This document shows, piece after piece, positions 26,801 through 48,525 of a stretch of 49,261 nucleotides of DNA. The stretch's first letter is position 1, and every line of letters starts with the position of its first letter. The stretch lies in NCBI GenBank assembly GCA_031258695.1, contig JAIRMM010000040.1:1-49261 (forward strand), in the 5' to 3' direction. A program made the position numbers and the translations under genes. Origin of the DNA: Puniceicoccales bacterium (GTDB lineage Bacteria; Verrucomicrobiota; Verrucomicrobiia; Opitutales; JAIRKQ01). The notes beneath the pieces were generated by a model. That model saw only the letters and a list, made by a program, of their open reading frames with translations. It was not told where the DNA came from and made no database searches.

Positions 26801-29800
26801 CCCAATTTCCAAAACATCCTGGCAGAGAATGGGTATTTTTTGCTTTGTCGCATTATCGATGGACAAAGAATCGATAAGGTTTTCATTGTTTATCAGGATG
26901 AACTTGTAGTCGCTCGGCTTATCCTTTGACCGCAAACAAATATAATTTAACCCGCCAGTGAGCGGACTGGGCACCGGAGGTTTTGATAGCACATATTGTT
27001 CGTTGCTCGCCAAATGCAATTCCCCGTCCTCTCCTCGATTGAATTGTAACACTTGATTATTATAATGCAGACCGGGCATCACGCAGGAAAGAACTTCGTT
27101 CGTATCAGGATTGATTGTCTCCAAGACATCGGTCTTCGTTGTGCCCCCGCAAGAAAGATTAGCCAAGAGCAGACTACCGCTAGAATACTTGCCATTCGTA
27201 CCGTGGTGTGGGGTTTTATACTCACGCATATCCCCATCTGGGGTGCATAATTTACCGTTTTCCAGCATAAATACTGGCTTATCCAAGGACTTTGGATCGT
27301 AGAGATAGACTTTTGCACATGCCGTATCTGTTTCTTCGACAAATGGCAAAAAGCGGGAAATCATTGAATCTGTTGCCGTCAGTTTTTTCCCAGGAGGAAG
27401 TGGTTTGGGTGTCACTAGGACTCTACCATCCATTGTTACTCTGTTGGTAAGGTTATCTATGGTTATTTTCCCATCCACGGTACTGGTGTCACCTTCTACT
27501 TTTACCCTGGAACGGATATTGGTACGGTCAATGCCAAGCTTGGATAATATGGGATGTTCCTCATTCTTTACTTTTACATGTTCCTCCGGATGTATCCCAT
27601 TGGTCAGGCGTACAAAATTGTTAAAATCTATGCTAGCTTTGATTTTGTTATCTCTGCCTTTGATTGTTATGAGTTTGTCATTAGCCGTCACTGGGGCATC
27701 TTCGTATCCCTGTTGCTCTGCATACCGCTCCCCAATTACTTGAAATGTCTCTGGTGTCAATTTACCTGCTTGGTCAACTATGAAATTTCTCAAAGCTTCC
27801 AACGGAACTCCCTCGAACATGTTCTTTATGCCAGAAGAATCTTCCGGATCTCGCTCAAGAAGCATATCGCTCGCCCCAGCCATTTCTGGCCAGATCATCA
27901 TCTTGGGATCCGTACATTTTAATATCTCATCGGTTGTTAAATCTTCTCCCCGGATCATTTTTTTGCACAAAACGCAGGCAAATTCCAGCTCTTCGTTTAC
28001 TGTGCCAACCGGTGAAATTTCTTTGTCAAAAACCTCGCCGTTGAGATCGGGTCCTCCGGCTCCTTTTACCACCCCACTTAGCTGCCTATGGAGTGATGCA
28101 TAAAATTTATACTTTTGCATGGCTTCCTCCGTTTTGACCGGATTCGGCAAGGTTTCAAGGGCTGTTTTAAAAAATTGATCGGCGAGGCGCACAAATTGTT
28201 CACGGGTTGTTCTGTCTTTTAGGGCTCCGGCCAGCGCTTCGGGGTTATTTGCATCCCCACATAGCAATTTGCAAAACATCCTTTGCATAGCAAGGTTGTC
28301 AAAAATGTTGGCGTTGCCTGAGGTTTGTAGCCATGAAAGCATGGCTTCTGTCTTTTGTACAACATTTCCATTGGGAGGCAAATGGCAATGCTCTAAAAAT
28401 GGGAACCGTTTGGCATGTTTTGATTTCGCAATATCTCCCTGGGAGTTGTCATTTAAGAACCCACAAATTTCTTGGTAATCATTTTGTAATTGTTCCCCAA
28501 ATGAGACATTTTTTATTACCACCGGCTCCTTATTGTCCTGCCTGGGAAATGCTACGCCATCCTTTGATTTTTCATCCAAGCTAAGGAGCATATAGGCAAA
28601 CCCATTGCCCGCAGACTCGGAACGTCCTAGACCCCCAAAACAGTCTGGTGATAACAAAAAAATCTCCCTAATGGCACTACGCGTATCATTATCGAACGAC
28701 GATAATAGCGGCACTACGTCTTGATAACTCTCTATGGAATTTCTTTCATTGAACAAAGCGTTCATTATTTCTTCAGATTCATGATGATCTCTTTTAATCC
28801 CATACCCTTCCCCATATTTTTTATAAATATCCGCTCCTAATTTTATGAGCTTGTCATAAATTTCCTGTTTATCCTCGGGCACGGTGATTCCATTTCTTCT
28901 ATTATATTCCGTATACGCCACGGCCATTCTAAAAAAACCCCCAATGTTTTCTAGGGTTTCACCTATGTCTTTGCCTTGCAGTGCCCCAAGGGTCCCATCA
29001 TGGTCTGATATGAGTTTTTCAAACTTCCACGCACTGGCGAATCCCATGGTCAAACGAGCAGCCTTTTGACTGCTAAGTTTCGCATTAGCCTGCTGAAGGA
29101 ATGCGGGAACATTGTCACAGACTTGTATGTTGTGTCCCTCTGAAATTTGTAGGGTGCTATCTTGGGTATATGTGGTACTAGCCTTAGCAAGGTCACGTGC
29201 TCTATCATCCTTACACGACGACGGGACTACGGCTGCCGGATTTGCCGCTAGGGGAGTAATTGCTTCGTTTACCCGTGATAAATATTTGGATGCCAACTCC
29301 GTACTGATCTTCCCAGATGCTTGCAAAGACAAAATTCTTTGTTGCACATCCCTACCTAGAGCATTAAGGACAACCGTGTGCTGTTCCAATAAGCATAAGG
29401 TTTCTCCTCTTTCCATTTTGGATTTAATATTTTCCAAATGGGCAACGCATTCACCTATTTCAAACGTGGCAACAAGTGCTTCCCGGGGAGAATTTCCTTT
29501 CGTGGCATATTGCAAGGCTTGTAATAGTTCAAATTTTAAACTCGTCTGCTTCTTTCCTCCGCCAGACTTGATCAAGACCATTTTCTCCTGGGGAACTTCC
29601 TTTGCTGGCTCTTCGCCAGCACATATTTTCCCCAAATCAGTTTTTATGTCTTCAAGCGAAGATTCGGAGTTGCTTGGATCAAATTTGTGTTTGAGGTCAA
29701 ATAGCTGAAATGCATTGACATAATCACCGGAATCCATCTGAATACCACCATGCGTTTCCAATGTTTTGGGTTGCGTGGTAAATTTTGTAACTTCCAAACT

Positions 29801-30532
29801 CCCTTTTTCATTTTTCCTGATCAGGAGAGCGTTAAAGTTCTTTTCTGCCTGAAATTCCTCTCCAGCACATTCCATTATTACCACCATTGGTTTATTTTCA
29901 TTCGCACATGCCTGCAGATGTTCCAACGTCAAATTTTCAAGGCCGTCAACTTTAGAAATGTTTAATTCTTTAAAAATTTCTCCAAAAACACCATCAATGC
30001 CTTCCCTAATTCGCTGTGGTTGTCGTAGCATGTTTTCCCCACGTAAAAATTCCCTGAGGTGTGAAATTGAACAGTCGATTGGTTCCGATTGGTCTACGTT
30101 GGTAAAATCGCATTTTGGGGGCACTTCTTCGATTTCCTCGGGTACTTCCGAATTTTCTGGGATGGACTCCCCAATGCTTTCGAAAAATTCTTCTATCTCT
30201 TTTCTAAGACTTTGATTTGTTTCATCTGCACTAGATGCAAGTTTGTGATGTATATCTTTCAACCCTTGTTTAAATTCTCCTAGCAAATCATCAATGCCGG
30301 AATTTCTGCGCAAGCACCATAACAGAAGCTTTTGGGGTAAAATTTTAAATTTAATCCATCCACCCCAACATCTGCGTTCTTCTAAGATTTTATGCTGGAT
30401 CTTGGTTGCTGTCATCTGCAAGTTATCATATCCCGCCACAGATCGTATGTCAGATAAACCCGAGAGTTTACTTTTTGCTGCGCCAGCCAATTGAAAAGTT
30501 TGTTCTATGAAATCAAGGTTTGCTATGGGCAT
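20849..30532 (-). CDS. Giant 3,227-aa protein with a central SF2-like P-loop NTPase core (reminiscent of DUF3638/DUF3645), an acidic disordered linker and an unassigned C-terminal domain
   Basis: A single uninterrupted ORF with an ATG start (MPIANLDFIE). Walker A is MMGGGKTSV (aa 2011-2019, nt 24476-24502). Walker B/DExD-like is LLDEIDLN (nt 24080-24091). Downstream motifs are SVGCTGTP, LVDAGG, FDELRCTGCDV and QGILRARKF. There is no signal peptide. All plus-strand ORFs inside it are short shadow ORFs. Confidence 0.85.
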   Translation of the reverse strand: MPIANLDFIEQTFQLAGAAKSKLSGLSDIRSVAGYDNLQMTATKIQHKILEERRCWGGWIKFKILPQKLLLWCLRRNSGIDDLLGEFKQGLKDIHHKLASSADETNQSLRKEIEEFFESIGESIPENSEVPEEIEEVPPKCDFTNVDQSEPIDCSISHLREFLRGENMLRQPQRIREGIDGVFGEIFKELNISKVDGLENLTLEHLQACANENKPMVVIMECAGEEFQAEKNFNALLIRKNEKGSLEVTKFTTQPKTLETHGGIQMDSGDYVNAFQLFDLKHKFDPSNSESSLEDIKTDLGKICAGEEPAKEVPQEKMVLIKSGGGKKQTSLKFELLQALQYATKGNSPREALVATFEIGECVAHLENIKSKMERGETLCLLEQHTVVLNALGRDVQQRILSLQASGKISTELASKYLSRVNEAITPLAANPAAVVPSSCKDDRARDLAKASTTYTQDSTLQISEGHNIQVCDNVPAFLQQANAKLSSQKAARLTMGFASAWKFEKLISDHDGTLGALQGKDIGETLENIGGFFRMAVAYTEYNRRNGITVPEDKQEIYDKLIKLGADIYKKYGEGYGIKRDHHESEEIMNALFNERNSIESYQDVVPLLSSFDNDTRSAIREIFLLSPDCFGGLGRSESAGNGFAYMLLSLDEKSKDGVAFPRQDNKEPVVIKNVSFGEQLQNDYQEICGFLNDNSQGDIAKSKHAKRFPFLEHCHLPPNGNVVQKTEAMLSWLQTSGNANIFDNLAMQRMFCKLLCGDANNPEALAGALKDRTTREQFVRLADQFFKTALETLPNPVKTEEAMQKYKFYASLHRQLSGVVKGAGGPDLNGEVFDKEISPVGTVNEELEFACVLCKKMIRGEDLTTDEILKCTDPKMMIWPEMAGASDMLLERDPEDSSGIKNMFEGVPLEALRNFIVDQAGKLTPETFQVIGERYAEQQGYEDAPVTANDKLITIKGRDNKIKASIDFNNFVRLTNGIHPEEHVKVKNEEHPILSKLGIDRTNIRSRVKVEGDTSTVDGKITIDNLTNRVTMDGRVLVTPKPLPPGKKLTATDSMISRFLPFVEETDTACAKVYLYDPKSLDKPVFMLENGKLCTPDGDMREYKTPHHGTNGKYSSGSLLLANLSCGGTTKTDVLETINPDTNEVLSCVMPGLHYNNQVLQFNRGEDGELHLASNEQYVLSKPPVPSPLTGGLNYICLRSKDKPSDYKFILINNENLIDSLSIDNATKQKIPILCQDVLEIGFHAVTGFDLSSSDYQAAGMILVYALHRSGRWEQTLDILNKINMREVVAGRNSALLELAFRPLVTDATKGNVLTIKADQILEEKLATFKIITLLLESNPYNFRNLLLARKEDGTVNFEDSFDLIMQMSSLYQSLIDARENSTMEVNLSKENELVIVEEIIGAMNQALEAAPATLKAGMKLIAFGEGMILTEMPEYGLLKLFEQKHQMLVEELGVQTHAKHFTKVAKDSKDHEIVYYKPGGKPSFAKASKFASVLPTRNREMLAKLRQEARETALLLESSVERREKVLTKCCRSDEAIRRDSELSDRERAAYIRFRDTMALPQLTDGGEGNGVIIGSIGKVYISEIEDFLNGQSVASKHSEALDGENQVRRLINENILKPVEAPKTSTPPSVEGAGNQQETDATVDAWKFNLLLEIVQLDEEAIQSHGALNKNDRQLILEFKKKRQEEIATATEASRGQTAPQINSEFRAGLLDLANAINGQKGSFLSNERQGVSQYESTAKKELARYNEEMSLAGSQDLRARALGELYEISPESFTRDEGTGKSQIESTIAGIAAQIQAATNKRDEIYSEHEGTFQGKLVEKLTTCSKTMDSLRKTKLAKTPTLDDARKALVCAPSDPNGDWSKSIKILQEINPEFTILDCKEIVNLTRQLLQASTAIRSMKQLEAAVENVRAKGQILLNDDHEIPAHGATNLTPEQKDFLLAKDQLITAYESVRTYDAETNMEALVFEDIVGFRVRGAQASIIQNVTAQLQSNEANNEQTGVTFQLMMGGGKTSVILSQLAHSISLQHKVPLFVCHPSQYTAMLGNLRLFQESRYSQEVISIDESKSDLQDSNKLSGIVRKLKRAKDGGGCLVIQAPTLRAIKLEFIRTSRLAMEGGDPAAMARAKQLADILSEVKENCVQLLDEIDLNLDITKSVNFPGGTRKSLASSQIDVIGSMLDVVTEDTGLYDAFCNDKFGAEKDGKTPVNQFKEKIIDRCFEQIQALDGSIDKNDFRNFMLGANEPGATFKQAWENIKQSHRREAEKIALQKGMLSIVDGAAKKEYNRHYGFREDGAVIPYQGVGTPSSGEFGNVYEQAYYFFAAILHNGIQLSQMTSLIDKYVDGLLPKSLAEQLESLWDDSGFGKLSDLKRMTDAQRHAAIHKATEQLNGKKKSKNFMSFVKMLAANTIKYNSELLECDAISMVDMSKTSVGCTGTPWNMQTYHSAFQGDNKAILELGTEGKIVQKWQKDFQTGASKILTPAGATVSSILGEHAAVHETDSGNLRALVDAGGIFKDRTNEEVANDILDYYRDDSNVQHVVYLGKTMAGEESFFVMAKNDRSHPRPIPNTSLEEIEKVVGKDHINETFTYFDELRCTGCDVPLDKNARAILTVNPDTTPIRTALQGILRARKFLDSQTVDLCVPQGLVPPGMNVSDDPVGAMTKICSHCIENQSVMLAKQTYKSYKAQISNCVKSITFERLHEIIGKHDGKKISKQERKTLNLCKQFTYSSFEADPLELYGDFDSEQPAYESLQNYYEGTLAKIKKVDRGMAEEFRVRAAIILSLAEKVLDFAVWESAVDTGTEVEAETETETETETETEQEQVTEDSSKVVEETSWDVLNAQARVDGDAPALDEAPAPAPDEASAVAQSEEGTRATDDVPQPPKPLEDRTRATTAVVAGDAPAPALDVSVAVQPEESAQATGDAPQPPKSLPERAKSMMDDFQSEEFREGSTLESILESQKEDPETTIDLVDQRLQTAARKNGLSDRELLVVLNERYNHPGSDEGESGESQLLPLFENPLLVDKTKARILAEAPTFASLIFPERAEARPGFPPILSADKCITDKPDFHIFRDDVQITANLAKNLEGVKWMDDSRRKDAQFALVYRSGETFKTLFLSDQDAQEIGKAMADLNVKDCWMFNAAGIPTSTNPLVTIEKGVLDAGREASADLAILYGNFHHLNSSEYNQKVLRTRVGVSPETKVSFLKRVQTLHPREYDDAVEFFSAA
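21737..21990 (-). repeat. About 135-bp tandem duplication encoding the Pro/Ala/Glu-rich linker of the giant protein
   Basis: ttttggaggctgcggt(g/a)catca(c/t)c(t/c)gttgcc(t/c)gag... occurs at 21737 and 21872. The two copies encode Q(S/P)EE..(R/Q)AT.D.PQPPK(P/S)L(E/P).R. Confidence 0.85.
22066..22120 (-). repeat. In-frame hexanucleotide tract encoding the ETETETETETETEQEQ run in the giant protein
   Basis: The plus strand reads ctctgtttctgtttctgtctctgtttctgtctctgtttctgcttctacttctg. The translation is AETETETETETETEQEQ. Confidence 0.9.
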
Positions 30533-30728: not shown

Positions 30729-31955
30729 ATGGGTAAAGTCTTTTCAAATACCAAAGTGGCAAGAAAAACATTCTTCTTTGACAATTGGCGGTGTTTCTGT
30801 TCCGGATTCATGGATCCTTTGCCGGAAAGTCTTGCTTTGGTTATTGTCCTTCGGATGTTTCGGGCCCCAATTTGGATAAAGTCTCTCATATTTGCCTCAG
30901 GTTTCATGGGAAATTTCCTTACCCCCCTGACTCAATCTTTGGTAGCACGGCAAAAACGATATAAAACCATGGATTTTAGTACAGCCTATTGGTTCATCGT
31001 TTCATTCTTGGTCTTTGCTTCAACTTTTGCTACATCGGTTGTGTCATTTTCGATCCTAATATCCTTTGCCATAATTTTTTCCAAACAACCAATTCCCCTT
31101 ATGGAAGATGTCTATGGCCAAAATTATTCACCCCAGGAACGGGGTGGTCGGCTAGCCATTACGCTCAACTTGTTACTATTATCCACCATAGTTTTTGGAC
31201 AGGTAGGGGGAAAATTGATGGATTTAAATTTACAAAACTACAAACTGGTGCTTCTCTTTGTGTCACTGGCGGCGATGGGAACAGCCCTATCCTTTTCTAA
31301 AATTCCTTCCAGGATCCTTCCCGCAGAAGGGGGAAAATCAATGGCTTCCAGTGTCAAAATAATTTTTACGGACAAACAATTTGGCATGGCCCTCCTTTGG
31401 TGGTCGTTATCAGGACTTGGCATACAAATAATGGGGCCCCTACGGACAGAGTACCTAGTGGACAGTACGAATGGGATAGGTGCTTCGAACGCATTTACGG
31501 TCCTTATATCCATAACTATTCCCATGGGATTTAGGATTTTGAGTACCTTCGTCTGCGGCCAAATTTTCCACCGGTTCAATTTTATTGCCATAAAACTAGT
31601 GGTTAACCTGTTTTTAATGGCCAGCGTCTTGCTGTTTTTTAATACGAAGATAAAATTTTTAGTTGCCCTTGCATCCGCCTGTTCCGGCATTGCCCGCGGC
31701 GGAGGTGAAATAATTTGGTGCCTGTGGGTTACCAAAATTGTACCAAAGGAAAAATTTAGCCTATATATGAGTCTCAACGTTGCCGTTACGGGACTGAGAG
31801 GGATGCTATCGCCCTTCATAGGATATGGTATTCGCCAACATTTGTCATTGGCCCAAATGAGCTACTTTTCGGCCACACTCGTACTAATTTCATCCTTCGG
31901 TTTTCTTTCATTGATCAAACATCCGCGTTTTACCACAATGTCAACAGCAGAATAG
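30729..31955 (+). CDS. MFS-type transporter, substrate unknown
   Basis: 408 aa with about 10-12 hydrophobic helices throughout and a mid-protein loop. It is divergent from the giant gene. The start codon is uncertain; alternative Met codons are at aa 28 and 43. Confidence 0.6.
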   Translation: MGKVFSNTKVARKTFFFDNWRCFCSGFMDPLPESLALVIVLRMFRAPIWIKSLIFASGFMGNFLTPLTQSLVARQKRYKTMDFSTAYWFIVSFLVFASTFATSVVSFSILISFAIIFSKQPIPLMEDVYGQNYSPQERGGRLAITLNLLLLSTIVFGQVGGKLMDLNLQNYKLVLLFVSLAAMGTALSFSKIPSRILPAEGGKSMASSVKIIFTDKQFGMALLWWSLSGLGIQIMGPLRTEYLVDSTNGIGASNAFTVLISITIPMGFRILSTFVCGQIFHRFNFIAIKLVVNLFLMASVLLFFNTKIKFLVALASACSGIARGGGEIIWCLWVTKIVPKEKFSLYMSLNVAVTGLRGMLSPFIGYGIRQHLSLAQMSYFSATLVLISSFGFLSLIKHPRFTTMSTAE

Positions 31956-32127: not shown

Positions 32128-33684
32128 ATGAGCGATACTGACACAATGCCGGAGTTTGGCAAAATGAGAAAGTTCTTTTTTCCAATCTATGGTTTCGAGG
32201 TGAAAAAAGCGTTACCAATGGGGTTTATGTTTTTTTTCATCCTGTTCAATTACACATGCCTAAGGAACATAAAAGATTCCATGGTAATCACAGCGCCTAA
32301 TTCGGGAGCGGAAGTCATTCCCTTTCTAAAGGCGTTTTTAGTCATGCCTAGTGCCATATTATTTACGCTGATTTATGCCAAGGGTAGTGATGTTATGAGT
32401 TGTGAAAACTTGTTCTATGTAACCATTGGATTTTTCATAATATTTTTTGGATTTTTCGGATTCGTAATCTATCCTAATTTGAGTTTTTTTCATCCGGCAG
32501 TAGATACCGTTGCACGTTGGCAAAATCATTATAGCCAATCCGTGCGTTGGCCACTGGCAATAGCGGGAAATTGGACATTTGCACTGTTCTATGTGATGTC
32601 GGAGTTGTGGGGAAGCGCAACACTGTCCCTGCTGTTTTGGCAATTTGCCAATCAAATATGTAAAACTTCGGAAGCTAAAAGATTTTATGCATTTTTTGGA
32701 TTACTTTCCCAATTTTCACTATTACTGGCGGGGGAGGTTGCCGATTACATTGAAAAATTTTCTCACAATGTTCCCAAAGGGATTGATCCTTGGGCAGTTT
32801 CCCTACGATGGTCAATGGGAATAGTCGTAGTATCCGGCATTGTGCTTATGATAATCCACCGTTGGATTTATAAAAATGTATTAACCGACAAACGGTTTTA
32901 CGATAAACCGGAACTTCCAGGGGCAAAAAAGAAAAAAAACAAGATGGGATTTTGGCAAAGTATGGCGTTTATGGTAACTTCTCCATACCTGATTTTGATA
33001 ACTGCGCTGGTAATTTGCTACGGCATCGGCGTCAACGTGATCGAAGGATTGTGGAAAGGACAGGCAAGATTGCTGAATTCCAGTACCGGTGCATTTAATG
33101 CATTCATGGGGCGCTATTCGTTCTACACGGGAATAACAACGATGATTGTGATGATTATCGGCGGAAATATTTTGCGTAAATTTAGTTGGTTTACGGCTGC
33201 CGCTATTACACCGATATTGACTTTGGTCTCCGGTAGCATATTTTTTTCCTTCGTAATATGGAGAAATGATTTTGTAAACATACTTGCTTGGTTTGGAACA
33301 AATCCCGTAGTCGTAGCAGTTTTTGTCGGGGCTGTAATACTAATTCTAGCGAAGGCAACCAAGTATTCTCTCTTCGACCTAACAAAGGAAATGGCCTATA
33401 TTCCACTCGACGATGAAATGAAAGTGAAAGGTAAGGTTGTGGTCGAAGTCATCGGTGGACGGTTGGGCAAGGCAAGTGGAGCATGGTTACAATCTGGATT
33501 ATTGATGATCTTTGGGCTAAACGTATTTGGCCATGGGAAAAAAGTCGAACTGATAAACCTGGCGCCCTACCTATTTGGGATACTAATTACGATTTGCCTA
33601 CTGTGGGTACTCGCCGTACGAGCACTTAGCAAAAAAATTGAGGCGGTAACAGCTACGGCCTCCAAGCAAGCAGCAGGCGAGTAA
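32128..33684 (+). CDS. ntt: ATP/ADP translocase (nucleotide transporter, NTT/Tlc/Npt family)
   Basis: 518 aa. The N-terminal half closely matches my recollection of chlamydial Npt1 and rickettsial Tlc: FGKMRKFFFPIYGFEVKKALPMGFMFFFILFNYTCLRNIKDSMVITAPNSGAEVIPFLKAF, NWTFALFYVMSELWGSATLSLLFWQFANQI and SEAKRFYAFFG. Confidence 0.9.
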   Translation: MSDTDTMPEFGKMRKFFFPIYGFEVKKALPMGFMFFFILFNYTCLRNIKDSMVITAPNSGAEVIPFLKAFLVMPSAILFTLIYAKGSDVMSCENLFYVTIGFFIIFFGFFGFVIYPNLSFFHPAVDTVARWQNHYSQSVRWPLAIAGNWTFALFYVMSELWGSATLSLLFWQFANQICKTSEAKRFYAFFGLLSQFSLLLAGEVADYIEKFSHNVPKGIDPWAVSLRWSMGIVVVSGIVLMIIHRWIYKNVLTDKRFYDKPELPGAKKKKNKMGFWQSMAFMVTSPYLILITALVICYGIGVNVIEGLWKGQARLLNSSTGAFNAFMGRYSFYTGITTMIVMIIGGNILRKFSWFTAAAITPILTLVSGSIFFSFVIWRNDFVNILAWFGTNPVVVAVFVGAVILILAKATKYSLFDLTKEMAYIPLDDEMKVKGKVVVEVIGGRLGKASGAWLQSGLLMIFGLNVFGHGKKVELINLAPYLFGILITICLLWVLAVRALSKKIEAVTATASKQAAGE

Positions 33685-40388: not shown

Positions 40389-40588
40389 GGTCCCTTTTTA
40401 AGCAAAAGTATTATAAAAGCAAGAATCTTTGCGATGAATTCCCCACAAACCTCCGATATTCCGGGAAAGAACGAAATGTAAAAACATGGTTTGACATTTC
40501 CGTGGAAAGGGCTACGCTTTTACGTTGCCGTCAATATTGGATGTTGGATGAACCGTTTTTACACTAAAAAATATAACTGGCTAAGATT

Positions 40589-40912
40589 ATGAAGGGAGTA
40601 AGTACCAGTTCTCCGGTTACAAACCAGGAGGTAAACAATAGCGAAACAGGGATATTCGGCCGTGCCATTCGATGGTGCGAAAACCGAAGGTGGAATGGGA
40701 TAGCCGCCCTCTTAAGTAAAATAACGGGCATACCTCTGAGTGACCGCGAAGACCAATCGACCATTCGCCGAGGAACGTCTCCTCAGACCATGGCCGCCAT
40801 GTGCAATTTAATCATCTTCCTGTCACATAGCCTCGGCACCTCCCTCGTCGATTTTATTTGCCTCTGCTCCCGCTCCCACTCCGCCCCTCCTAATCTTTTG
40901 ACGGAGAACTAA
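40589..40912 (+). CDS. Hypothetical protein (weakly supported ORF)
   Basis: 107-aa ORF in an otherwise gene-poor 1.2-kb stretch. It has no SD and no motif, and it overlaps a minus-strand ORF of similar quality. Confidence 0.25.
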   Translation: MKGVSTSSPVTNQEVNNSETGIFGRAIRWCENRRWNGIAALLSKITGIPLSDREDQSTIRRGTSPQTMAAMCNLIIFLSHSLGTSLVDFICLCSRSHSAPPNLLTEN

Positions 40913-41094
40913 ATGGCCCTGTCCCATTTCAGGATTCCCATTTCGGGTTTGCGATTTTCTGGCTTGCAATTCCTCATTCCCGACTTGCCATTCCCAAGGT
41001 TCCAGCTGTCCGGTTGGTCATTTCCGTAGTTGTTCATCCCCACCCACAGCAGTATCCGCAAATAGTCATACAATCTGCCGTTTATGCTCTTCAG

Positions 41095-41238
41095 CTACTC
41101 GCCCTGCCCACTGAGCGTACCGGGCAACGGCAATCCTCCTCCCATCGTCTTACATCCTCCGCACACCACCACGCACAGCATGCTTCCCACAAACAGTATA
41201 CTTACCAATACTTTCCTTGTCCCTTTTCCTACTATCAC
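41095..41238 (-). CDS. Candidate small lipoprotein (47 aa), below the ORF-track cutoff
   Basis: The minus-strand reading, from a GTG start, is MIVGKGTRKVLVSILFVGSMLCVVVCGGCKTMGGGLPLPGTLSGQGE*. It has a basic n-region, a hydrophobic core and Cys residues in a lipobox-like position. An internal ATG is at 41181. No SD was checked. Confidence 0.25.
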   Translation of the reverse strand: MIVGKGTRKVLVSILFVGSMLCVVVCGGCKTMGGGLPLPGTLSGQGE

Positions 41239-41393
41239 TAGCCTTCCTTCCGGCTCCTAGGTTACTACTTTTTACTATTTTTTCAATGCTTTTACGTTTT
41301 TGCTAGTTTTATTATCCCTCCTTTTTACCAATTTCTATGAAAAAGAAACCTGGGAATGGGATTTTCGGTCAACCTTTTTGGTGGAACATTGGT

Positions 41394-41473
41394 GGATGTG
41401 TTAAAAAGCAGAAGAGGATGAAAAGAGCAGAGGGTACAGCCATCCCTTTGCCGGCGACATTTAAATGGATAAA
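41394..41473 (+). repeat. Copy A of an approximately 77-80-bp conserved element, about 100 bp upstream of the repeat-protein gene
   Basis: The sequence is ggatgtgttaaaaagcagaagaggatgaaaagagcagagggtacagccatccctttgccggcgacatttaaatggataaa. It contains the perfect palindrome CATTTAAATG at 41458-41467. Confidence 0.9.
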
Positions 41474-41574
41474 GCGAGGCGAAAGAAAATTTCCCCATCT
41501 TCCGATGTGAAACAAGGTATTAAATTTTTACAAAAAAATTGCTATTTTTGTATTTTTTTGTATTTTTTTTCCAC

Positions 41575-44500
41575 ATGGAAAGAATGACAACAAGTGTTTT
41601 AAGAGAAGGTGAAAATATTTTTGAGACAATAGGGCAAATATTGACTCAAATAAGGCCTGGTCTGATCCCAGAAGGAAACATACCATTTCCGGGTGGCGAT
41701 GTAGATACTAAGGCTCTTGAAGAGAGAGAAACGACTTTAGATCTGCTTTCAGCCGATGAATCCAGAGAGTTTGCAAATAGACTGATTGAGGGTGGCGAGG
41801 TAGGTTTAAGATGTTTAAATACCTTGCTTAATAAAGGCAGAATAAGAAATCTTCAGTTAAGTGAAGCCGAAGCCAGAAATTTTTTGTATAGACTGCTTGA
41901 GGGTGGAGAGGCGGGCTTAAGATGTTTAAATACCTTGCTTAATAGAGGCAGACTAAGAAACTTTCGTTTAGATGAAACCGCACCCAGAGAGTTTGCAGAT
42001 AGATTGATTGGGCATGGCGAGTGGGGTTTAAGATGTTTAAATACCTTGCTTCATGAAGAGGGACTAAGAAATCTTAATTACAATGAATTAACACCTGCCC
42101 AAGCCAGAGAGTTTGCGCATAGACTGATTGGGCATGGCGAGGCGGGCTTAGAATGTTTAAATACCTTGCTTAATAAAGGCAGAATAGGAAATCTTCAGTT
42201 AAGTGAAGCCGAAGCCACAGAGTTTGTAGATAGACTGATTGGGCATGGCGAGGCGGGCTTAGAATATTTAAATACCTTGTTTGATAAAGGCATACTAAGA
42301 AACTTTCGTTTAAATGAAGCCGAATCCAGCAGTTTTGCACATATACTGATTGGGCATGGCGAGAGGGGGTTAGAATGTTTAAATACCTTGCTTTATAAAG
42401 GCAGACTAAGAAACTTTCGTTTAGATAAAGCCGCATCCAGAGAGTTTGCAGATAGACTGATTGGGTATGGCAAGGTGGGCTTAGGACGTTTAGATACCTT
42501 GCTTAATAAAGGCAAACTGGAAAATCTTAATTACGATGAATCAACACCTGTCCAAGCCAGAGGTTTTGCAGATAGACTGATTGGGCATGGCGAGGCGGGC
42601 TTAGAATATTTAAATACCTTGCTTAATGAAGGCAGAATAAGAAATCTTAATTACAATGAATTAACATCTGCCCAAGCCAGAGAGTTTGCAGATAGACTGA
42701 TTGGGCATGGCGAGTGGGGCTCAAGATGTTTAAATACCCTGCTTAATGAAGGCAGAATAAGAAATCTTCAGTTAAGTGAAACCGAAGCCAGAAATTTTTT
42801 GTATAGACTGCTTGATAAGAATAGCTGGCGGAGTGCGGAGTGTTTGATGCCAGGCACATTCCTAAACTTTCATCCAGAGAATTTAGATTCTGCCGAAGCC
42901 ACAAAGTTTGTATTTAAAGTGATTGACAATGGTGGCAAGAGGGATGTAGAGTATTTAAGAGTTTTAATTGGGGAAGGCAAATTACCAAACTTTCATCCAG
43001 AAACTTTAAATTCCGCCGATGCCGAAAAGCTTGCAGATAGGATACTTCGTAAAAATAGTCTGGAGGCTGTGAAGCTACTAGGTTATTTAATAATGGCTGA
43101 AAAATTGCCAAATTTTAATCCGGCAAAAAATTTGATGACGCTCGTGAGATGCGGTCTGCCTGGTATGGCCTTACTTAACAAGTTAGTGCTTGGGGAAAGC
43201 CCAAGAATTGGGCTAGGGGAATTACCTCTAACACAAGCCCTATGTCTTGCAGGAACAATGATTAAGGAGGGTGGTCGGGATGGAGCGAAACACTTATGTT
43301 CCTTAATTGAGGAAAAGAAACTCCCAAATCTTCAACTCCCAAACAAGAATATATCTGCTTTCGATGCTTCCTCCATCGGACTTACCGTACGGCAGTTGCT
43401 TTGTGAGGGTGGCCCGTATGGTGCGAAGTGTTTAAGACTTTTAATTGAGAAAGGCACATTTTTACCGAAGAATTTAGATCCTGCCGCCTCCAAATGGCTT
43501 GCAAGGACATTGCTTGTCAGGGGTGCCCGTGAGGGTGCAAAATGTTTAAAGTTTTTGCTTGAACAAGGCAAATTGCCAAGCCTTAACCTGAATGATTTAT
43601 CAAAAAATGACTCCACCGGGTTTTTAAAGAACCTATTTAGGTGTGGTCCGGAGGGTAGAGAATGCTTATTTTTCATTCTTAATCAAGGCACACCACAGCT
43701 TGATCTACTAACAAACCTTAAACTGCAGGATTTATCAGAAACCGACTCCTGTTTTTTGGCAGAGGAATTGCTTGGGGGTAGGGAATTCGGCGTAAAATGT
43801 TTTAATATCTTGATCGAAAAAGGCCAATTGCCAGGACTTAAGCTTGATAAATTAAGTGAAGGAGCGTTACTACAACTTGATCTTCATCTATTCCCGTCAA
43901 CTCAGCTTACAACATTAGCCGAAACGTTGTTTGTTAGTTCGCCTAGGCCGAGTCTGCTAGTAAGGTTGATTGAACAAAATAAACTATTCTTTGATCCGAA
44001 TTCTTTATTCTCTAAGTTCCCTGAACAATTCGAAACTTTTGCCATGGCATCGGCAGGATATGGTGCATTTGGCGGAAGACTATTAACAGAGTTAACATTG
44101 GTCCCCGATCGTCCTTTTTTCTCTTTACCAGAAACATCCAAAGCTTTTGTACATAGGTTACTTAGGTGTAGTCCATCTGGCATGGAATTTACAACAACGC
44201 TGATTGAACAAGGAAAATTGCCACATCTTGCCTTGCCAGTGGACACGGCCACACAAACTTATGCCGACAAATTTAGACTCCTACATTTAAAATTGGAAGG
44301 CGTAATCGGTAATAGGTCATTGGGTGATGTTCATAGTGAATCAACGTATATGCCTTTGAAGGAAGCCCGTAGGGTTTGGCAAGGAATAGCGAATGAAGTG
44401 GCGGTGGATTGTTTCGATGGAGGTGGCTATGTCAATGTCGAAAAGCTCAGAACATGGATGGAGTTTTTCGGAAATGCAGAAGTTTTCGAGGCCATACCGT

Positions 44501-45594
44501 ACCGTTTCATTCCCCAAGTGGAGTTAATGCGTTCCCAGATATACACGGTATGTGAATGCCTTGTTGCCAATAGAAACAACGTAATGGATATATTAAATCT
44601 CGCCAGGAATATCATCCCTGGGCCCTATGGGCTATTTCTTTTAAATATCATGTCGCGGGGCAGGAAACCACTTTTGACCCCTGCCGAAGCCATACTGGCA
44701 TCCCTGTTCTCTCTCCACAGGCAACTTGGTTTGCCAACATGCACCATAGACGCTCTTATCAGCGCAGAAATCCGAAACCATCCGGAACGGCTGATACTAA
44801 TGTATGGGCAGATATTACGCGGTGGCCAATTCCTCCTTCCGAGCGGGTTCACAGTCCAACTACTACCAATAGTAAATGATTCCATCACCGTTGATTTGAA
44901 AAATGGCGGGAGAGGGAAAGATAGTGTATTTGAGGATATTGAATGTAGCATCCCTTCTGTAATCGACGAGCGAATAAAAGTGTGGCAAGAAGAAGGGATA
45001 AAATACGTTGTCACACCCCATATGGAAGAACGATATAGACTCACATATCCGGTACATAACATGAATGCGGTGCTATTTCTTCACATATTACAGGCGTCTA
45101 ACTTTGGAAATTGGAAAATACACGGCAATAACTATGGCGTCACACAGATATACGCCGGGCACGAGGCAACTGCCGAAATATCAATCCCAATGGATAGGGC
45201 AAAACATTTAAATGGAATGGCAGAATTAAAAAAACAGGCCGAAGCCCGACAGAAACTTGGAGACCACTTCATCTATGTGGGAACAAATGGTACAATATAC
45301 ACAATACCTGCTACCCATGCAGAAAACATTGACATCGATGCCCTACTTGCCTTAGATTTGGACAATATGCATATCGGAAGGGCATACCCCTTCGGTGATC
45401 GCAATTGGTATAATAGAGAGATATCACGGGATATTCCCCGTCTGGCAATTAGAAGAACGGATGATACTCCAACCTATGAATTTGGAATCTTGAATGGATA
45501 CCGTTTCACCCCAACTAACATATCAACGGTCATGATTTGTGACATCGATATCCAGCGTCGCACGGATCAATCTGCACTTGTTTTTCCCTCCTAG
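41575..45594 (+). CDS. Tandem-repeat protein: about 20 helical repeats of 37-41 aa followed by an unassigned C-terminal domain of about 450 aa
   Basis: I prefer the ATG at 41575 (MERMTTSV...) over the TTG at 41539, which would add a poly-Phe leader. The repeat consensus is (R/T)EFA(D/H)RLIGHGEAGLECLNTLLNKGR(I/L)RN(L/F). It decays towards KCLxxLIExGKLPNLxL. There is no signal peptide. Confidence 0.85.
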   Translation: MERMTTSVLREGENIFETIGQILTQIRPGLIPEGNIPFPGGDVDTKALEERETTLDLLSADESREFANRLIEGGEVGLRCLNTLLNKGRIRNLQLSEAEARNFLYRLLEGGEAGLRCLNTLLNRGRLRNFRLDETAPREFADRLIGHGEWGLRCLNTLLHEEGLRNLNYNELTPAQAREFAHRLIGHGEAGLECLNTLLNKGRIGNLQLSEAEATEFVDRLIGHGEAGLEYLNTLFDKGILRNFRLNEAESSSFAHILIGHGERGLECLNTLLYKGRLRNFRLDKAASREFADRLIGYGKVGLGRLDTLLNKGKLENLNYDESTPVQARGFADRLIGHGEAGLEYLNTLLNEGRIRNLNYNELTSAQAREFADRLIGHGEWGSRCLNTLLNEGRIRNLQLSETEARNFLYRLLDKNSWRSAECLMPGTFLNFHPENLDSAEATKFVFKVIDNGGKRDVEYLRVLIGEGKLPNFHPETLNSADAEKLADRILRKNSLEAVKLLGYLIMAEKLPNFNPAKNLMTLVRCGLPGMALLNKLVLGESPRIGLGELPLTQALCLAGTMIKEGGRDGAKHLCSLIEEKKLPNLQLPNKNISAFDASSIGLTVRQLLCEGGPYGAKCLRLLIEKGTFLPKNLDPAASKWLARTLLVRGAREGAKCLKFLLEQGKLPSLNLNDLSKNDSTGFLKNLFRCGPEGRECLFFILNQGTPQLDLLTNLKLQDLSETDSCFLAEELLGGREFGVKCFNILIEKGQLPGLKLDKLSEGALLQLDLHLFPSTQLTTLAETLFVSSPRPSLLVRLIEQNKLFFDPNSLFSKFPEQFETFAMASAGYGAFGGRLLTELTLVPDRPFFSLPETSKAFVHRLLRCSPSGMEFTTTLIEQGKLPHLALPVDTATQTYADKFRLLHLKLEGVIGNRSLGDVHSESTYMPLKEARRVWQGIANEVAVDCFDGGGYVNVEKLRTWMEFFGNAEVFEAIPYRFIPQVELMRSQIYTVCECLVANRNNVMDILNLARNIIPGPYGLFLLNIMSRGRKPLLTPAEAILASLFSLHRQLGLPTCTIDALISAEIRNHPERLILMYGQILRGGQFLLPSGFTVQLLPIVNDSITVDLKNGGRGKDSVFEDIECSIPSVIDERIKVWQEEGIKYVVTPHMEERYRLTYPVHNMNAVLFLHILQASNFGNWKIHGNNYGVTQIYAGHEATAEISIPMDRAKHLNGMAELKKQAEARQKLGDHFIYVGTNGTIYTIPATHAENIDIDALLALDLDNMHIGRAYPFGDRNWYNREISRDIPRLAIRRTDDTPTYEFGILNGYRFTPTNISTVMICDIDIQRRTDQSALVFPS
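41758..42830 (+). repeat. High-identity coding tandem repeats (111-120-bp period, about 9-10 copies); diverged copies continue to about 44230
   Basis: gagtttgcagatagactgattgggcatggcgag(g/t)(c/g)gggcttag(a/g)atgtttaaataccttgcttaat recurs along this span. Three alternative linker types are interspersed (NLQLSEAEA, NFRLDxxAx, NLNYNELTxAQA). Confidence 0.9.
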
Positions 45595-45990: not shown

Positions 45991-48525
45991 ATGGATATAG
46001 AAAGAAATGACGACAATATGCAATTTCCATCATCTACCGAAAGTTCTGGGGATGAACTAGGAAACAATCTCAGACCAGCGAATAGAGTAGGGCCAAATCC
46101 AGCTGGAGGTCAAGGAATTGAGCTGGAATTTCCACTGGGTGGACGGCAAGTGGAAGCTAACCTAGCTGATCGGGAGCCAACGCTGGAAGCTCTTCAGGAA
46201 GCTTTTCAGGAAACTTTCCAGGCAATTGAAGGGGTATGCAATCAAGCAACACTGGCAACTGCAATTGCAGCAGTAAATAACCTTGTAGGGTTAGTGGCAA
46301 ATGTACGCGATCCAGAAGTACTAGAAGCCCTGAAAAATTTGATTAAACAGGCAGAGCGTAAGATAGAAAGAGAAAATTCTAGGGCTGACAGAACCGAAGA
46401 CCCACCTCTTAAAGTAGCAGCCATAACGAAAGCTGTACTGGTAGCTATACTGACGGAAGTGCAATTATTAGAAAGGAATCGAAGTGTGGGCAAAGCAAGG
46501 GAGAGAATGGACGCTCTGAAGCAAATTTTGGAGAATGCAGAAAGGCAAATTTTGGAGAATGCAGAACCTAGAGTTACAACAATGGAAAATTCAGTGTGTG
46601 CGCTGCAAAACTTATTCCGTGATATAAGGCATGATGTGTCAAAGGAATCCGCAAAAAAACTTGTAGAAAAATTTGTAGAAAAACTTGTAGAAAAACTTAA
46701 CGAAGGATTCAATTTGGAAGCAACACAGGAGATGCTAATAAGCATTGTATCGGGAACAGATCCAAAAACATGGGAGGGTCAATGGAAAATAGAATGGTCA
46801 ATGGAATACTTGCGCGATTCAATAGATGATGCAGATAGAGTTGCGACAGAAGATGACAATGATTTGGAAGTTAGAGTGAAGGCGGCATTTGAATCCTTAG
46901 TGCTAAAAATAGCACAGGAGTCACTGTCCGCGGTGGTGGGAGATTCACCCCCACCGATAGAGGTGTCGCGAAATGCAGCAGCAGCAGGAATGGAAACGCT
47001 GCTCGATGGTCGGTTAGAAGTAGTGGCAAGTAAAGATCCGGAAGAAAAAATGACAGCGATGTATGCCCTAGAAAGAAATGTACTGTACTGGGTAAGGGAG
47101 GAGATAAGTGCAGCAAAAAAAGATGCAAACGAAAAAAGGGAAAATGCACTAGGAGCAATACAAGCAGTTGAAAACGAAATTATGCAAGCTATACAAACAA
47201 ACGATTCAGAAAGACTGAAAACTGTACTGGGTAGACTAGAGGAGATTGCATCGGGAATAAATCCAAATATACTGAAAGCTGCAGTGAAGGAAATATTGAG
47301 AGGTGCTCGGAGGAAGCCAGAAATCGTGCAGTGGCAGGCAATACTATTACCGCTAGAAGTACTTAACGCTGTGCTGGAAGGAACAAACGATCCAGCTATA
47401 CGGACAAGTGTGCTGCATGCGGGACTAGATTGGGCGGGTCAATTATTCGATGAGGTATTGGGGGAACCATCAATGGAACAACAAATAAACACGCTAAGAG
47501 ACGCATTAGGGAGCGTATCGGCAGCAGTACAGGAAGCAATATGGAAAGCTGAAGATGATTCAGCTGCTCCGGAATCAGAATCTGAAGGTAATTCAACTCC
47601 TCCTCCTCCGGATTCAGAATTAGAACCTCTTCCAAGACATGCTCCGGAACCTCTTTCAGAATCTGCTCCGGATTCAGAATCAGAATCTGAAGGTAATGCA
47701 ACTACTACTCCTCCGGATTCAGAATCAGAACCTCTTCCAAGACATGCTCCGGAACCTCCTCCAGGACATGCTCCAGATGTAGCACATGTATATGTAGTAA
47801 GGATACAAGAAGCTGTTCGGGCTATAGCTGCAGCGGGACCAGGAGCTGTTCAGGCTATAGCTGCTTTTTGGAACTTTATACAGAAGTATGTCCAAACGTG
47901 TTCCTTTGTTCTCTTAATTGCTTCATCAGTGTCTTCGCTATTGCCGTCAAAAATAGTAACAGTACTGGCAAAACTAGTATGGGTAACACGGATAGCAAAC
48001 TTGATAAATGCGGGAGGGTTTGCCCTTAGGATAATCAAGTTGATAGTAGATAACCGGCAGTATATAAAAGATCATCCTTTTAGATGCTTAGTAGGGGCAA
48101 TGGTTGCTGTAGTAGCAGTTTATGCAATAGTACCTATGTTTTGTGGACCAGGAGTGTTAAACTTACTGAGTGAAGTATCTACAATATTCTCGATAGGCGA
48201 ATGGGTAATGAATAGCCTTCCGGCAATCCAGGGGTGGATAAGAGGACATCCCTATAAATTCGCAGCGATGGCGGCTGTAATTATACTAGTGCCTCTATTT
48301 TATAAAATGGGATTATGGACACAGTTAACAGGGCTAATAAAAAACTTGTTGGAAAAAACACCAAAGGATGATACTACCATCCCGCCTATCATCCCGCCTA
48401 TCATCCCGCCTATCGCGTCGCATACCCCGCCTATCATCCCGCCTACCCCACCTAAAATTTCCAAATCTTTTTGTACAGCAAATGCTAGTGATTTTAGGTC
48501 AAAGTCGCCGTTCGGTAACCGGTAA
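45991..48525 (+). CDS. Hypothetical 844-aa protein: long helical N-terminal region, acidic Ser/Glu/Pro repeat, cluster of TM helices and a C-terminal PPII repeat
   Basis: ATG with an AAAGGAG SD upstream. The hydrophobic block spans about aa 605-775 (FVLLIASSVSSLL, LVGAMVAVVAVYAIVPMF, FAAMAAVIILVPLFY). The C-terminus reads IPPIIPPIIPPIASHTPPIIPPTPP. No known motif was recognised. Confidence 0.8.
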   Translation: MDIERNDDNMQFPSSTESSGDELGNNLRPANRVGPNPAGGQGIELEFPLGGRQVEANLADREPTLEALQEAFQETFQAIEGVCNQATLATAIAAVNNLVGLVANVRDPEVLEALKNLIKQAERKIERENSRADRTEDPPLKVAAITKAVLVAILTEVQLLERNRSVGKARERMDALKQILENAERQILENAEPRVTTMENSVCALQNLFRDIRHDVSKESAKKLVEKFVEKLVEKLNEGFNLEATQEMLISIVSGTDPKTWEGQWKIEWSMEYLRDSIDDADRVATEDDNDLEVRVKAAFESLVLKIAQESLSAVVGDSPPPIEVSRNAAAAGMETLLDGRLEVVASKDPEEKMTAMYALERNVLYWVREEISAAKKDANEKRENALGAIQAVENEIMQAIQTNDSERLKTVLGRLEEIASGINPNILKAAVKEILRGARRKPEIVQWQAILLPLEVLNAVLEGTNDPAIRTSVLHAGLDWAGQLFDEVLGEPSMEQQINTLRDALGSVSAAVQEAIWKAEDDSAAPESESEGNSTPPPPDSELEPLPRHAPEPLSESAPDSESESEGNATTTPPDSESEPLPRHAPEPPPGHAPDVAHVYVVRIQEAVRAIAAAGPGAVQAIAAFWNFIQKYVQTCSFVLLIASSVSSLLPSKIVTVLAKLVWVTRIANLINAGGFALRIIKLIVDNRQYIKDHPFRCLVGAMVAVVAVYAIVPMFCGPGVLNLLSEVSTIFSIGEWVMNSLPAIQGWIRGHPYKFAAMAAVIILVPLFYKMGLWTQLTGLIKNLLEKTPKDDTTIPPIIPPIIPPIASHTPPIIPPTPPKISKSFCTANASDFRSKSPFGNR
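47566..47765 (+). repeat. Two tandem 99-bp coding repeats (acidic Ser/Glu/Pro linker)
   Basis: gctccgga(a/t)tcagaa...gaacctcttccaagacatgctccggaacct occurs at 47566 and 47665. It encodes APxSESESEGNxT..PPDSExEPLPRHAPEP. Confidence 0.85.
48379..48453 (+). repeat. 12-bp coding microsatellite (atcatcccgcct)n encoding (IIPP)n
   Basis: atcccgcctatcatcccgcctatcatcccgcctatc...ccgcctatcatcccgcctaccccacct is read directly from the sequence. Confidence 0.9.

Follow-up and report, generated by a model that had tools for sequence, protein, structure and literature searches.

HEAT and ARM solenoids, including the importin-β/karyopherin family, CAND1, the N-terminal region of mTOR, and the HEAT subunits of condensin, are elongated stacks of antiparallel two-helix units of about 37–47 residues, and usually function as protein-binding scaffolds. 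The proteases IdeS, Mac-1, and T-Mac (MEROPS family C66), streptopain and interpain (C10), and staphopain (C47) are composed of a helical lobe and a β-sheet lobe. In Rickettsia RARP-2, from an obligate intracellular bacterium, ankyrin repeats with strain-dependent copy number form a eukaryote-like scaffold fused to a thiol-protease-like domain. Here, we analyze a 49,261-nucleotide contig of a Puniceicoccales bacterium (JAIRMM010000040.1, assembly GCA_031258695.1; the whole stretch is referred to as the window), in which a gene at 41575..45594 (+) encodes a large tandem-repeat protein. We put at roughly 0.55 the probability that the protein is effector-like and modular, with an acidic leader, a HEAT-like solenoid, and a C-terminal papain-like hydrolase, and that the bacterium is an intracellular symbiont from a lower-termite gut. 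The analysis shows the anatomy of the repeats, the predicted fold classes, the membership, amplification, and lineage restriction of the family, and how well the candidate catalytic residues are conserved, whereas we infer catalysis, secretion, and host targeting.

The coding sequence is one complete, intact open reading frame (ORF) of 1339 residues plus stop. The gene call in the database starts three codons later, at ATG 41584, and gives 1336 residues. The N-terminus of the protein lines up with the start of the homologue P0061, which supports the start site. A start at TTG 41539 is unlikely; it would extend the protein only by a Phe-rich stretch that comes from a T-rich tandem repeat. This 10-nt repeat (TTTTTGTATT x2.5; 41545–41569) lies directly 5' of the start codon and is the origin of the spurious Phe-rich extension. 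The N-terminal leader (residues 1–61; 41575..41757, +) is acidic (isoelectric point (pI) 4.3) and partly conserved with P0061 (…GE.IF.TIG.IL.Q…). It is followed by nine conserved repeat units of 37 or 40 residues (residues 62–403; 41758..42783, +) with linker subtypes L, F, and N, about twelve degenerate units of 35–50 residues (residues 404–893; 42784..44253, +), and a globular non-repeat domain of 446 residues (residues 894–1339; 44254..45591, +) with a helical N-lobe and an antiparallel β-sheet C-lobe. An initial annotation, made from the letters of the DNA, had described the protein as about 20 tandem repeats. The repeats do fill residues 62–893, but the last 446 residues form the globular, probably papain-like domain that was overlooked, and it is this domain that defines the family of the protein and, most likely, its activity. 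The earlier remark that there is no signal peptide agrees with a Kyte-Doolittle scan of the protein, which finds no hydrophobic N-terminal signal or transmembrane segment (19-residue maximum 1.3; 0.47 in the first 60 scanning windows).

Tandem Repeats Finder places the DNA array at 41758–42798, with a period of 111 nt, 9.1 copies, 75% matches, and a score of 1014, and reports higher-order periods of 342 nt (score 1169) and 453 nt (score 1421). The conserved units 1–9 are 37, 37, 40, 37, 37, 37, 40, 40, and 37 residues long, and follow the unit consensus given by the initial annotation. Their linkers are LQLSEAEA (L type; units 1, 4, and 9), FRLDxxA (F type; units 2, 5, and 6), and LNYNELTxAQA (N type, three residues longer; units 3, 7, and 8). 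The three linker types are exactly those listed before, but they do not alternate strictly, the order along units 1–9 being L, F, N, L, F, F, N, N, L. Likewise, the proposed period of 37–41 residues describes the conserved units but not the degenerate ones. A hidden Markov model (HMM) of the repeat was iterated over all relatives; its core consensus is EFALALLKAGPEGAECLATLIEKGKLPNL, to which the degenerate units are closer, and the family-wide unit consensus is xxEAxxFAxxLxkaGxxGxxCLxxLIxxGKLPNLxL. The sequence toward which the later units had been seen to diverge, GAKCLxxLIEKGKLPNL, is also the consensus of the wider family. The HMM recognizes 16 units in the protein at E < 0.01 and 20 under relaxed settings, and counting in the 21 helix pairs of the AlphaFold model gives 21 units over residues 62–893, in good agreement with the earlier estimate of about 20. 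The Cys at unit position 20 (e.g., residues 81, 118, 155, and 195) is kept in helix B of most units family-wide (GxxCLxxL).

An AlphaFold2 model of residues 55–893, computed from an alignment with 28 relatives, has a mean predicted local distance difference test score (pLDDT) of 80.7 and a predicted template modeling score (pTM) of 0.49; the latter is plausible for a long rod. In each modeled unit, helices A and B, of 13 residues apiece, are separated by a tight turn, and an extended linker (~10 residues) follows helix B. A Foldseek search of the model against the PDB returns HEAT/ARM-type solenoids only (RESC, mTOR, CAND1, the importin-β family, and condensin subunits), with probabilities of 0.95–1.0, E values of 2e-3 to 3e-2, and low TM scores (0.15–0.31). 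By fold class, the repeat region is thus predicted to be a HEAT/ARM-like α-solenoid of stacked antiparallel helix pairs, and the α-solenoid suggested by the initial annotation is borne out at the level of the model.

The repeat is a sequence family of its own and has just the fold class in common with HEAT and ARM. Consistent with its earlier placement outside the curated families, Pfam and NCBIfam searches of the whole protein find no family at E ≤ 1, and HEAT, HEAT_2, HEAT_EZ, and HEAT_PBS are not matched in the whole-protein Pfam hmmscan (0 families at E ≤ 1). In addition to having no profile match, the repeat differs from HEAT/ARM in the absence of the canonical HEAT Asp/Arg signature and in its own consensus, conserved Cys, and long extended linker. 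Ten related proteins that consist of the repeat only have no significant match in Pfam, their sub-threshold matches being to GUN4_N ("ARM-like"; E 0.06–0.12) alone. The sole phmmer match among PDB sequences is to a pleckstrin DEP domain (E 0.045; residues 601–694), a single weak match inside the repeats that we regard as chance.

The vaguely ankyrin-like pattern of the initial annotation does not identify the repeat as ankyrin. No Ank family is matched at E ≤ 1 in Pfam, and the unit period is 37–40 residues versus 33. The "GH" is confined to the homogenized units, the family consensus being kaGxxG, and the spacing from GH to LL is 12 residues versus 8 in the ankyrin consensus. The model contains two 13-residue helices and an extended linker but no β-hairpin, and there is no ankyrin protein among the top 50 Foldseek matches. 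TPR, Sel1, PPR, and TALE repeats (periods of 34, 36–44, 35, and 34 residues, respectively) have no Pfam match either. The unit profile does reach E 1e-7 against designer PPR proteins, but it does so by adding up nine identical partial matches of 12 residues and 2.3 bits each; no natural PPR is matched, and hhalign of the unit profile against the PPR consensus gives a probability of 0.75%. A search of a 5.8-billion-sequence set with a two-unit repeat profile returned nothing at E ≤ 1e-3 and was judged uninformative.

The N-terminal copies, initially described as almost identical in DNA, are in fact 80% identical on average (pairwise range 70–90%), and the longest exact repeat in the array is 52 nt. 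The nine units cluster by linker type, with DNA identities of 87–90% within L, 80–84% within F, and 82–85% within N, and about 78% between types. This grouping, together with the 342-nt super-period, fits an origin from one ancestral block of three units through amplification and rearrangement. Units 10 and 2 have identical first 31 nt, which is probably a recombination boundary. Unit identity is 67% within the protein versus 32% against the units of P0061, indicating independent amplification or concerted evolution, so that the recent expansion or homogenization proposed by the initial annotation still stands. The changes among the nine units concentrate at the recurrent variable positions 15, 18, 19, 25, and 26, which lie on one face of helix B, at position 7, and in the linker.

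The C-terminal domain is modeled confidently by AlphaFold2 (pLDDT 87.4, pTM 0.89) and consists of a helical lobe followed by an antiparallel β lobe. The motif Q1050-LGLPT-C1056 (44722..44742, +) contains a putative oxyanion Gln and a putative nucleophile Cys at the N-terminus of a helix. His1248 of an HAEN motif, the putative general base, is on a β-strand, and D1275-R-N1277-W1278 ends the next strand (45316..45408, +, for both). In the model (domain numbering), C1056 is the first residue of helix 177–189, H1248 is in strand 365–374, and D1275 ends strand 391–396. Across about 115–130 family members, Q1050 is conserved in 114/114, C1056 in 107/114, H1248 in 126/130, N1251 in 125/130, D1275 in 123/132, N1277 in 128/132, and W1278 in 101/131, and all the candidate catalytic residues are intact in the window protein. 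The order Cys…His…Asp/Asn and the predicted placement of these residues on helix and strands correspond to the papain-like (clan CA) layout. Q1050 precedes C1056 by six residues, the same spacing as that between the oxyanion-hole Gln19 and Cys25 of papain (clan CA). An additional conserved helical region of about 150 residues precedes the protease-like core.

The best four PDB matches of the C-terminal model in Foldseek are T-Mac (9mdk), IdeC (9hb1), IdeS (8a47), and interpain A (3bba), and staphopains are within the top 12. These papain-like matches are not statistically significant, with E values of 0.036–0.28, identities of 7–14%, and probabilities of at most 0.77. A Foldseek search against viral structures (BFVD) gives nothing meaningful. 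The C-terminal domain, like the C66, C10, and C47 proteases, has helical and β-sheet lobes, and its D-x-N motif parallels D284 and D286 of IdeS. In IdeS, Mac-1, and T-Mac, which have a papain-superfamily layout, the Cys is at the N-terminus of a helix, the distance from Cys to His is 149–168 residues, and the distance from His to Asp/Asn is 22–24 residues; the oxyanion residue of IdeS and T-Mac is Lys (PMC11833123). In the window domain, the corresponding distances are longer (192 and 27 residues, respectively), and the putative oxyanion residue, six positions before the Cys, is Gln, not Lys. The C66, C10, and C47 proteases also differ from the window protein in being Sec-exported virulence factors of extracellular pathogens. 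The C-terminal domain is likely, but not proven, to be a papain-like thiol hydrolase, with catalysis being putative.

A search with the full-length protein matched only itself, probably with repeated words saturating the search, and the last 460 residues were used as the query instead. This query has 59 homologues at 30–54% identity. All the labeled ones are hypothetical proteins from metagenome-assembled genomes (MAGs) named "Puniceicoccales bacterium", several per MAG. An exhaustive phmmer search of 1.84 billion representatives gives 159 matches, most of them to the C-terminal domain; the taxonomic spread of the repeat rests on this search and on look-ups of the repeat-only relatives. Among GTDB species-representative genomes, the C-terminal domain is found at 27 loci in nine MAGs, all Puniceicoccales, with up to six loci per MAG. 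As we read their codes, the isolate names of these MAGs refer to lower termites such as Neotermes, Kalotermes, Glyptotermes, and Prorhinotermes. Paralogues with the C-terminal domain are often in tandem, with arrays of two to three copies per locus at L001, L002, L003, L008, and L024, and just one gene in the window carries the repeat and C-terminal modules.

The repeat and the C-terminal domain are combined in several ways. In paralogues such as P0061, P0068, P0073, P0062, and P0034, the repeat occurs in 1–11 copies upstream of the protease-like domain. In P0104, P0106, P0125 (MDR1528461.1), P0126, P0140, and P0158 (MDR0742439.1), 5–14 units occur on their own; these repeat-only proteins belong to the same repeat family and lineage as the window protein but lack the protease-like domain. 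Their phmmer E values go down to 6e-27, and some are encoded by adjacent genes. Every taxon-labeled one among 20 that we looked up is from a Puniceicoccales MAG, and the annotation is hypothetical or a spurious name. Many repeat-only relatives (P0125, P0126, P0151, P0158, P0118, P0140, P0170, and others) have a common N-terminal domain, "AIAKQAF…LAFQAAA.PEN", which is also carried by the protease-domain paralogues P0021, P0063, and P0066, and repeat-only relatives have a common C-terminal tail, "KTKALELL". Neither this N-terminal domain nor the tail has a Pfam match. No relative seen has as many units as the window protein. One paralogue, P0002, contains an extra partial copy of the C-terminal domain inside one protein, and some others (P0003 and P0007) have hydrophobic C-terminal tails.

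P0061, encoded in the Neotermes MAG Nc350_bin44, is the nearest relative of the same architecture; it has about 15 units and is 37% identical from residue 283 onward. As the alignment covers the window protein only from residue 283, P0061 has about six units fewer. It has homogenized N-terminal units of its own, whose linker, KNYHFNDLTxAQS, is related to the N-type linker of the window protein. The DNA of the C-terminal domain in the window gene is 63–74% identical to that of the MAG paralogues. A transporter gene of the MFS family at 30729–31955 in the window has 64.5% DNA identity to part of the MAG locus L010. Therefore, the source of the window is another, related member of the lineage.

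The MFS transporter gene adjoins a gene for a TLC-family ATP/ADP translocase (32128–33684, +; E 3e-175). ATP/ADP translocases are a hallmark of energy-parasitic intracellular bacteria, and the gene therefore points to an intracellular lifestyle. The window also encodes ClpP, biotin-synthesis genes, and EF-P. The host-associated setting considered by the initial annotation is consistent with the translocase and with the labeled relatives, all of which come from lower-termite gut MAGs of Puniceicoccales. The verrucomicrobial "termite/Nucleococcus cluster" is documented to include symbionts in the nucleus and in the cytoplasm of termite-gut flagellates (PMC8204192).

In the working model that we favor, the protein would consist of three parts: a short acidic leader without a Sec signal; an α-solenoid of ~830 residues with ~21 HEAT-like units, in each of which a G-x-x-G turn joins helices A and B and an extended "GKLPNLxL" linker follows; and a C-terminal domain of ~450 residues that is papain-like in fold, with Gln, Cys, His, and Asp (Asn) in its active site. 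The solenoid would bind a partner, most probably a protein of the flagellate host, and bring it to the thiol hydrolase. The hydrolase would cleave or otherwise modify the bound partner; protease, deubiquitinase-like, and deamidase activities are all conceivable. Units 1–9 may have arisen by recent tandem amplification or homogenization of a three-unit (L-F-N) block. They differ from one another chiefly in the linker and at exposed helix B positions, and these differences would readjust the binding surface. RARP-2 provides a precedent for the combination of domains. It differs from the window protein in having ankyrin rather than HEAT-like repeats, another domain order, and another protease clan, and there is no sequence relationship between the two.

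Several observations weigh against this model. The candidate nucleophile Cys is absent from 7/114 family members. The Foldseek matches of the C-terminal domain all fall short of E ≤ 1e-3 (best E 0.036, with probability 0.77 and TM score about 0.2), the family profile has no match among PDB sequences at E ≤ 10, and 43 members of the C-terminal domain family have no match in Pfam. No secretion-system gene is seen in the window, no secretion signal or chaperone was identified, and the leader is only weakly conserved. Synteny of the window gene with P0061 was checked and not found, making orthology uncertain. Finally, the ratio of nonsynonymous to synonymous differences (pN/pS) among the nine units is 1.57, but this excess lacks significance in the bootstrap (one-sided p about 0.08), and relaxed constraint could account for it.

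A protein without a signal peptide, and with neither a recognizable secretion signal nor an adjoining secretion-system gene, may also stay in the bacterium. As HEAT-like solenoids are common intracellular scaffolds, the repeats could then hold together a bacterial complex, with the C-terminal domain processing bacterial substrates in a housekeeping or regulatory role. We consider this rather improbable, because the family is restricted to one lineage, is multi-copy (up to six loci per MAG), is tandemly arrayed, and is highly variable in N-terminal architecture, a pattern that is typical of host-interaction families and unusual for housekeeping genes in reduced genomes. The repeats, in addition, evolve fast. 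The large size, the long repeats, the C-terminal enzymatic domain, and the existence of paralogue arrays are also reminiscent of antibacterial or contact-dependent toxins, in which the papain-like domain would be the toxic part and would be delivered into bacterial competitors; polymorphic toxins are known to include papain-like domains. In the present family, however, the C-terminal domain is constant and the N-terminal region is variable, whereas polymorphic toxins show the opposite pattern. In the window, we see no small gene of the immunity type, no Rhs, PAAR, VgrG, LXG, or two-partner secretion marker, and no type VI or type VII secretion system neighbor, and a symbiont that lives inside cells and has an ATP/ADP translocase faces few competitors. 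A toxin is, in our judgment, a poor candidate.

Two further explanations concern the array itself. The initial annotation compared the use of linker types with programmable repeats, and two-helix units of 37–40 residues with a few recurrent variable positions could indeed form a TALE/PPR-like array that reads nucleic-acid sequence, with base specificity set by the variable residues or the linker types. The top Foldseek match, an RNA-editing RESC subunit, and the score of the unit profile against designer PPR proteins fit this idea. That score, however, is the additive artefact of identical designer repeats described above, neither PPR nor TAL is matched in Pfam, and the remaining Foldseek matches are protein-binding HEAT proteins. 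The solenoid is also near neutral (pI 6.9 and 8.4; K+R roughly equal to D+E), a weak argument against a nucleic-acid-reading array. We find such an array very unlikely. Least probable of all is an assembly error behind the copy number or the entire array, or decay of the gene into a pseudogene. Tandem repeats are error-prone in short-read metagenome contigs, and the 1.2-kb region upstream of the gene appears to hold a gene remnant. Yet the units are only 70–90% identical, the longest exact repeat is shorter than normal reads, the 4-kb frame is open throughout with the candidate catalytic residues intact, and an independent MAG encodes P0061, with the same architecture.

More broadly, we raise as a tentative and somewhat doubtful proposal that the effector-like protein belongs to an undescribed, lineage-specific superfamily of modular effectors of protist-dwelling, possibly intranuclear, verrucomicrobial symbionts. 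The new HEAT-like repeat would be a fast-diversifying recognition scaffold of variable copy number, combined with different heads and tails, among them a new papain-like hydrolase family, and the expansion of the array in the window gene, together with dN>dS at exposed positions of helix B, would be an ongoing adaptation to a host target. The locus exposes two sequence families that are absent from Pfam, NCBIfam, and the PDB, namely the 37–40-residue HEAT-like repeat and the papain-like domain, which are amplified to dozens of genes in Puniceicoccales MAGs and occur in several shuffled arrangements. Should these proteins be effectors, they would give concrete access to the manipulation of the host in the termite-gut symbiosis and provide a natural example of a repeat scaffold that evolves by tandem amplification. 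The fold classes and the logic of a repeat scaffold plus a thiol protease are already well known from effectors of other intracellular bacteria, and the result is a useful family discovery, not a new principle.

Minus-strand ORFs of 88–145 residues within the gene are antisense to a conserved, homologue-supported frame and were taken as spurious. Promoter and terminator scans at the locus are at background level, and Rfam and tRNA scans find merely three tRNAs, all far from the repeat gene. The 1.2-kb gap 5' of the repeat gene (40389–41574) contains a sole ORF of 107 residues (40589–40912), the first ~60 residues of which have a weak likeness to the N-terminal leader of P0064 (phmmer E 1.2e-3 in a 191-sequence set). 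This ORF may be the remnant of a decayed paralogue.

Three other large ORFs are present in the window. An ORF of 1194 residues at 15636–19220 (+) has no Pfam match at E ≤ 1e-3. A giant ORF of 3227 residues at 20849–30532 (−) has DUF3638 as its sole Pfam match (residues 1959–2186, E 1e-14) and may encode another large host-interaction protein. Directly downstream of the repeat gene and on the same strand, an ORF of 844 residues (45991–48525, +), which has no Pfam match, encodes a duplicated acidic Ser/Glu/Pro segment, several membrane-like hydrophobic segments near the C-terminus, and a PPIIPPIIPP tail.

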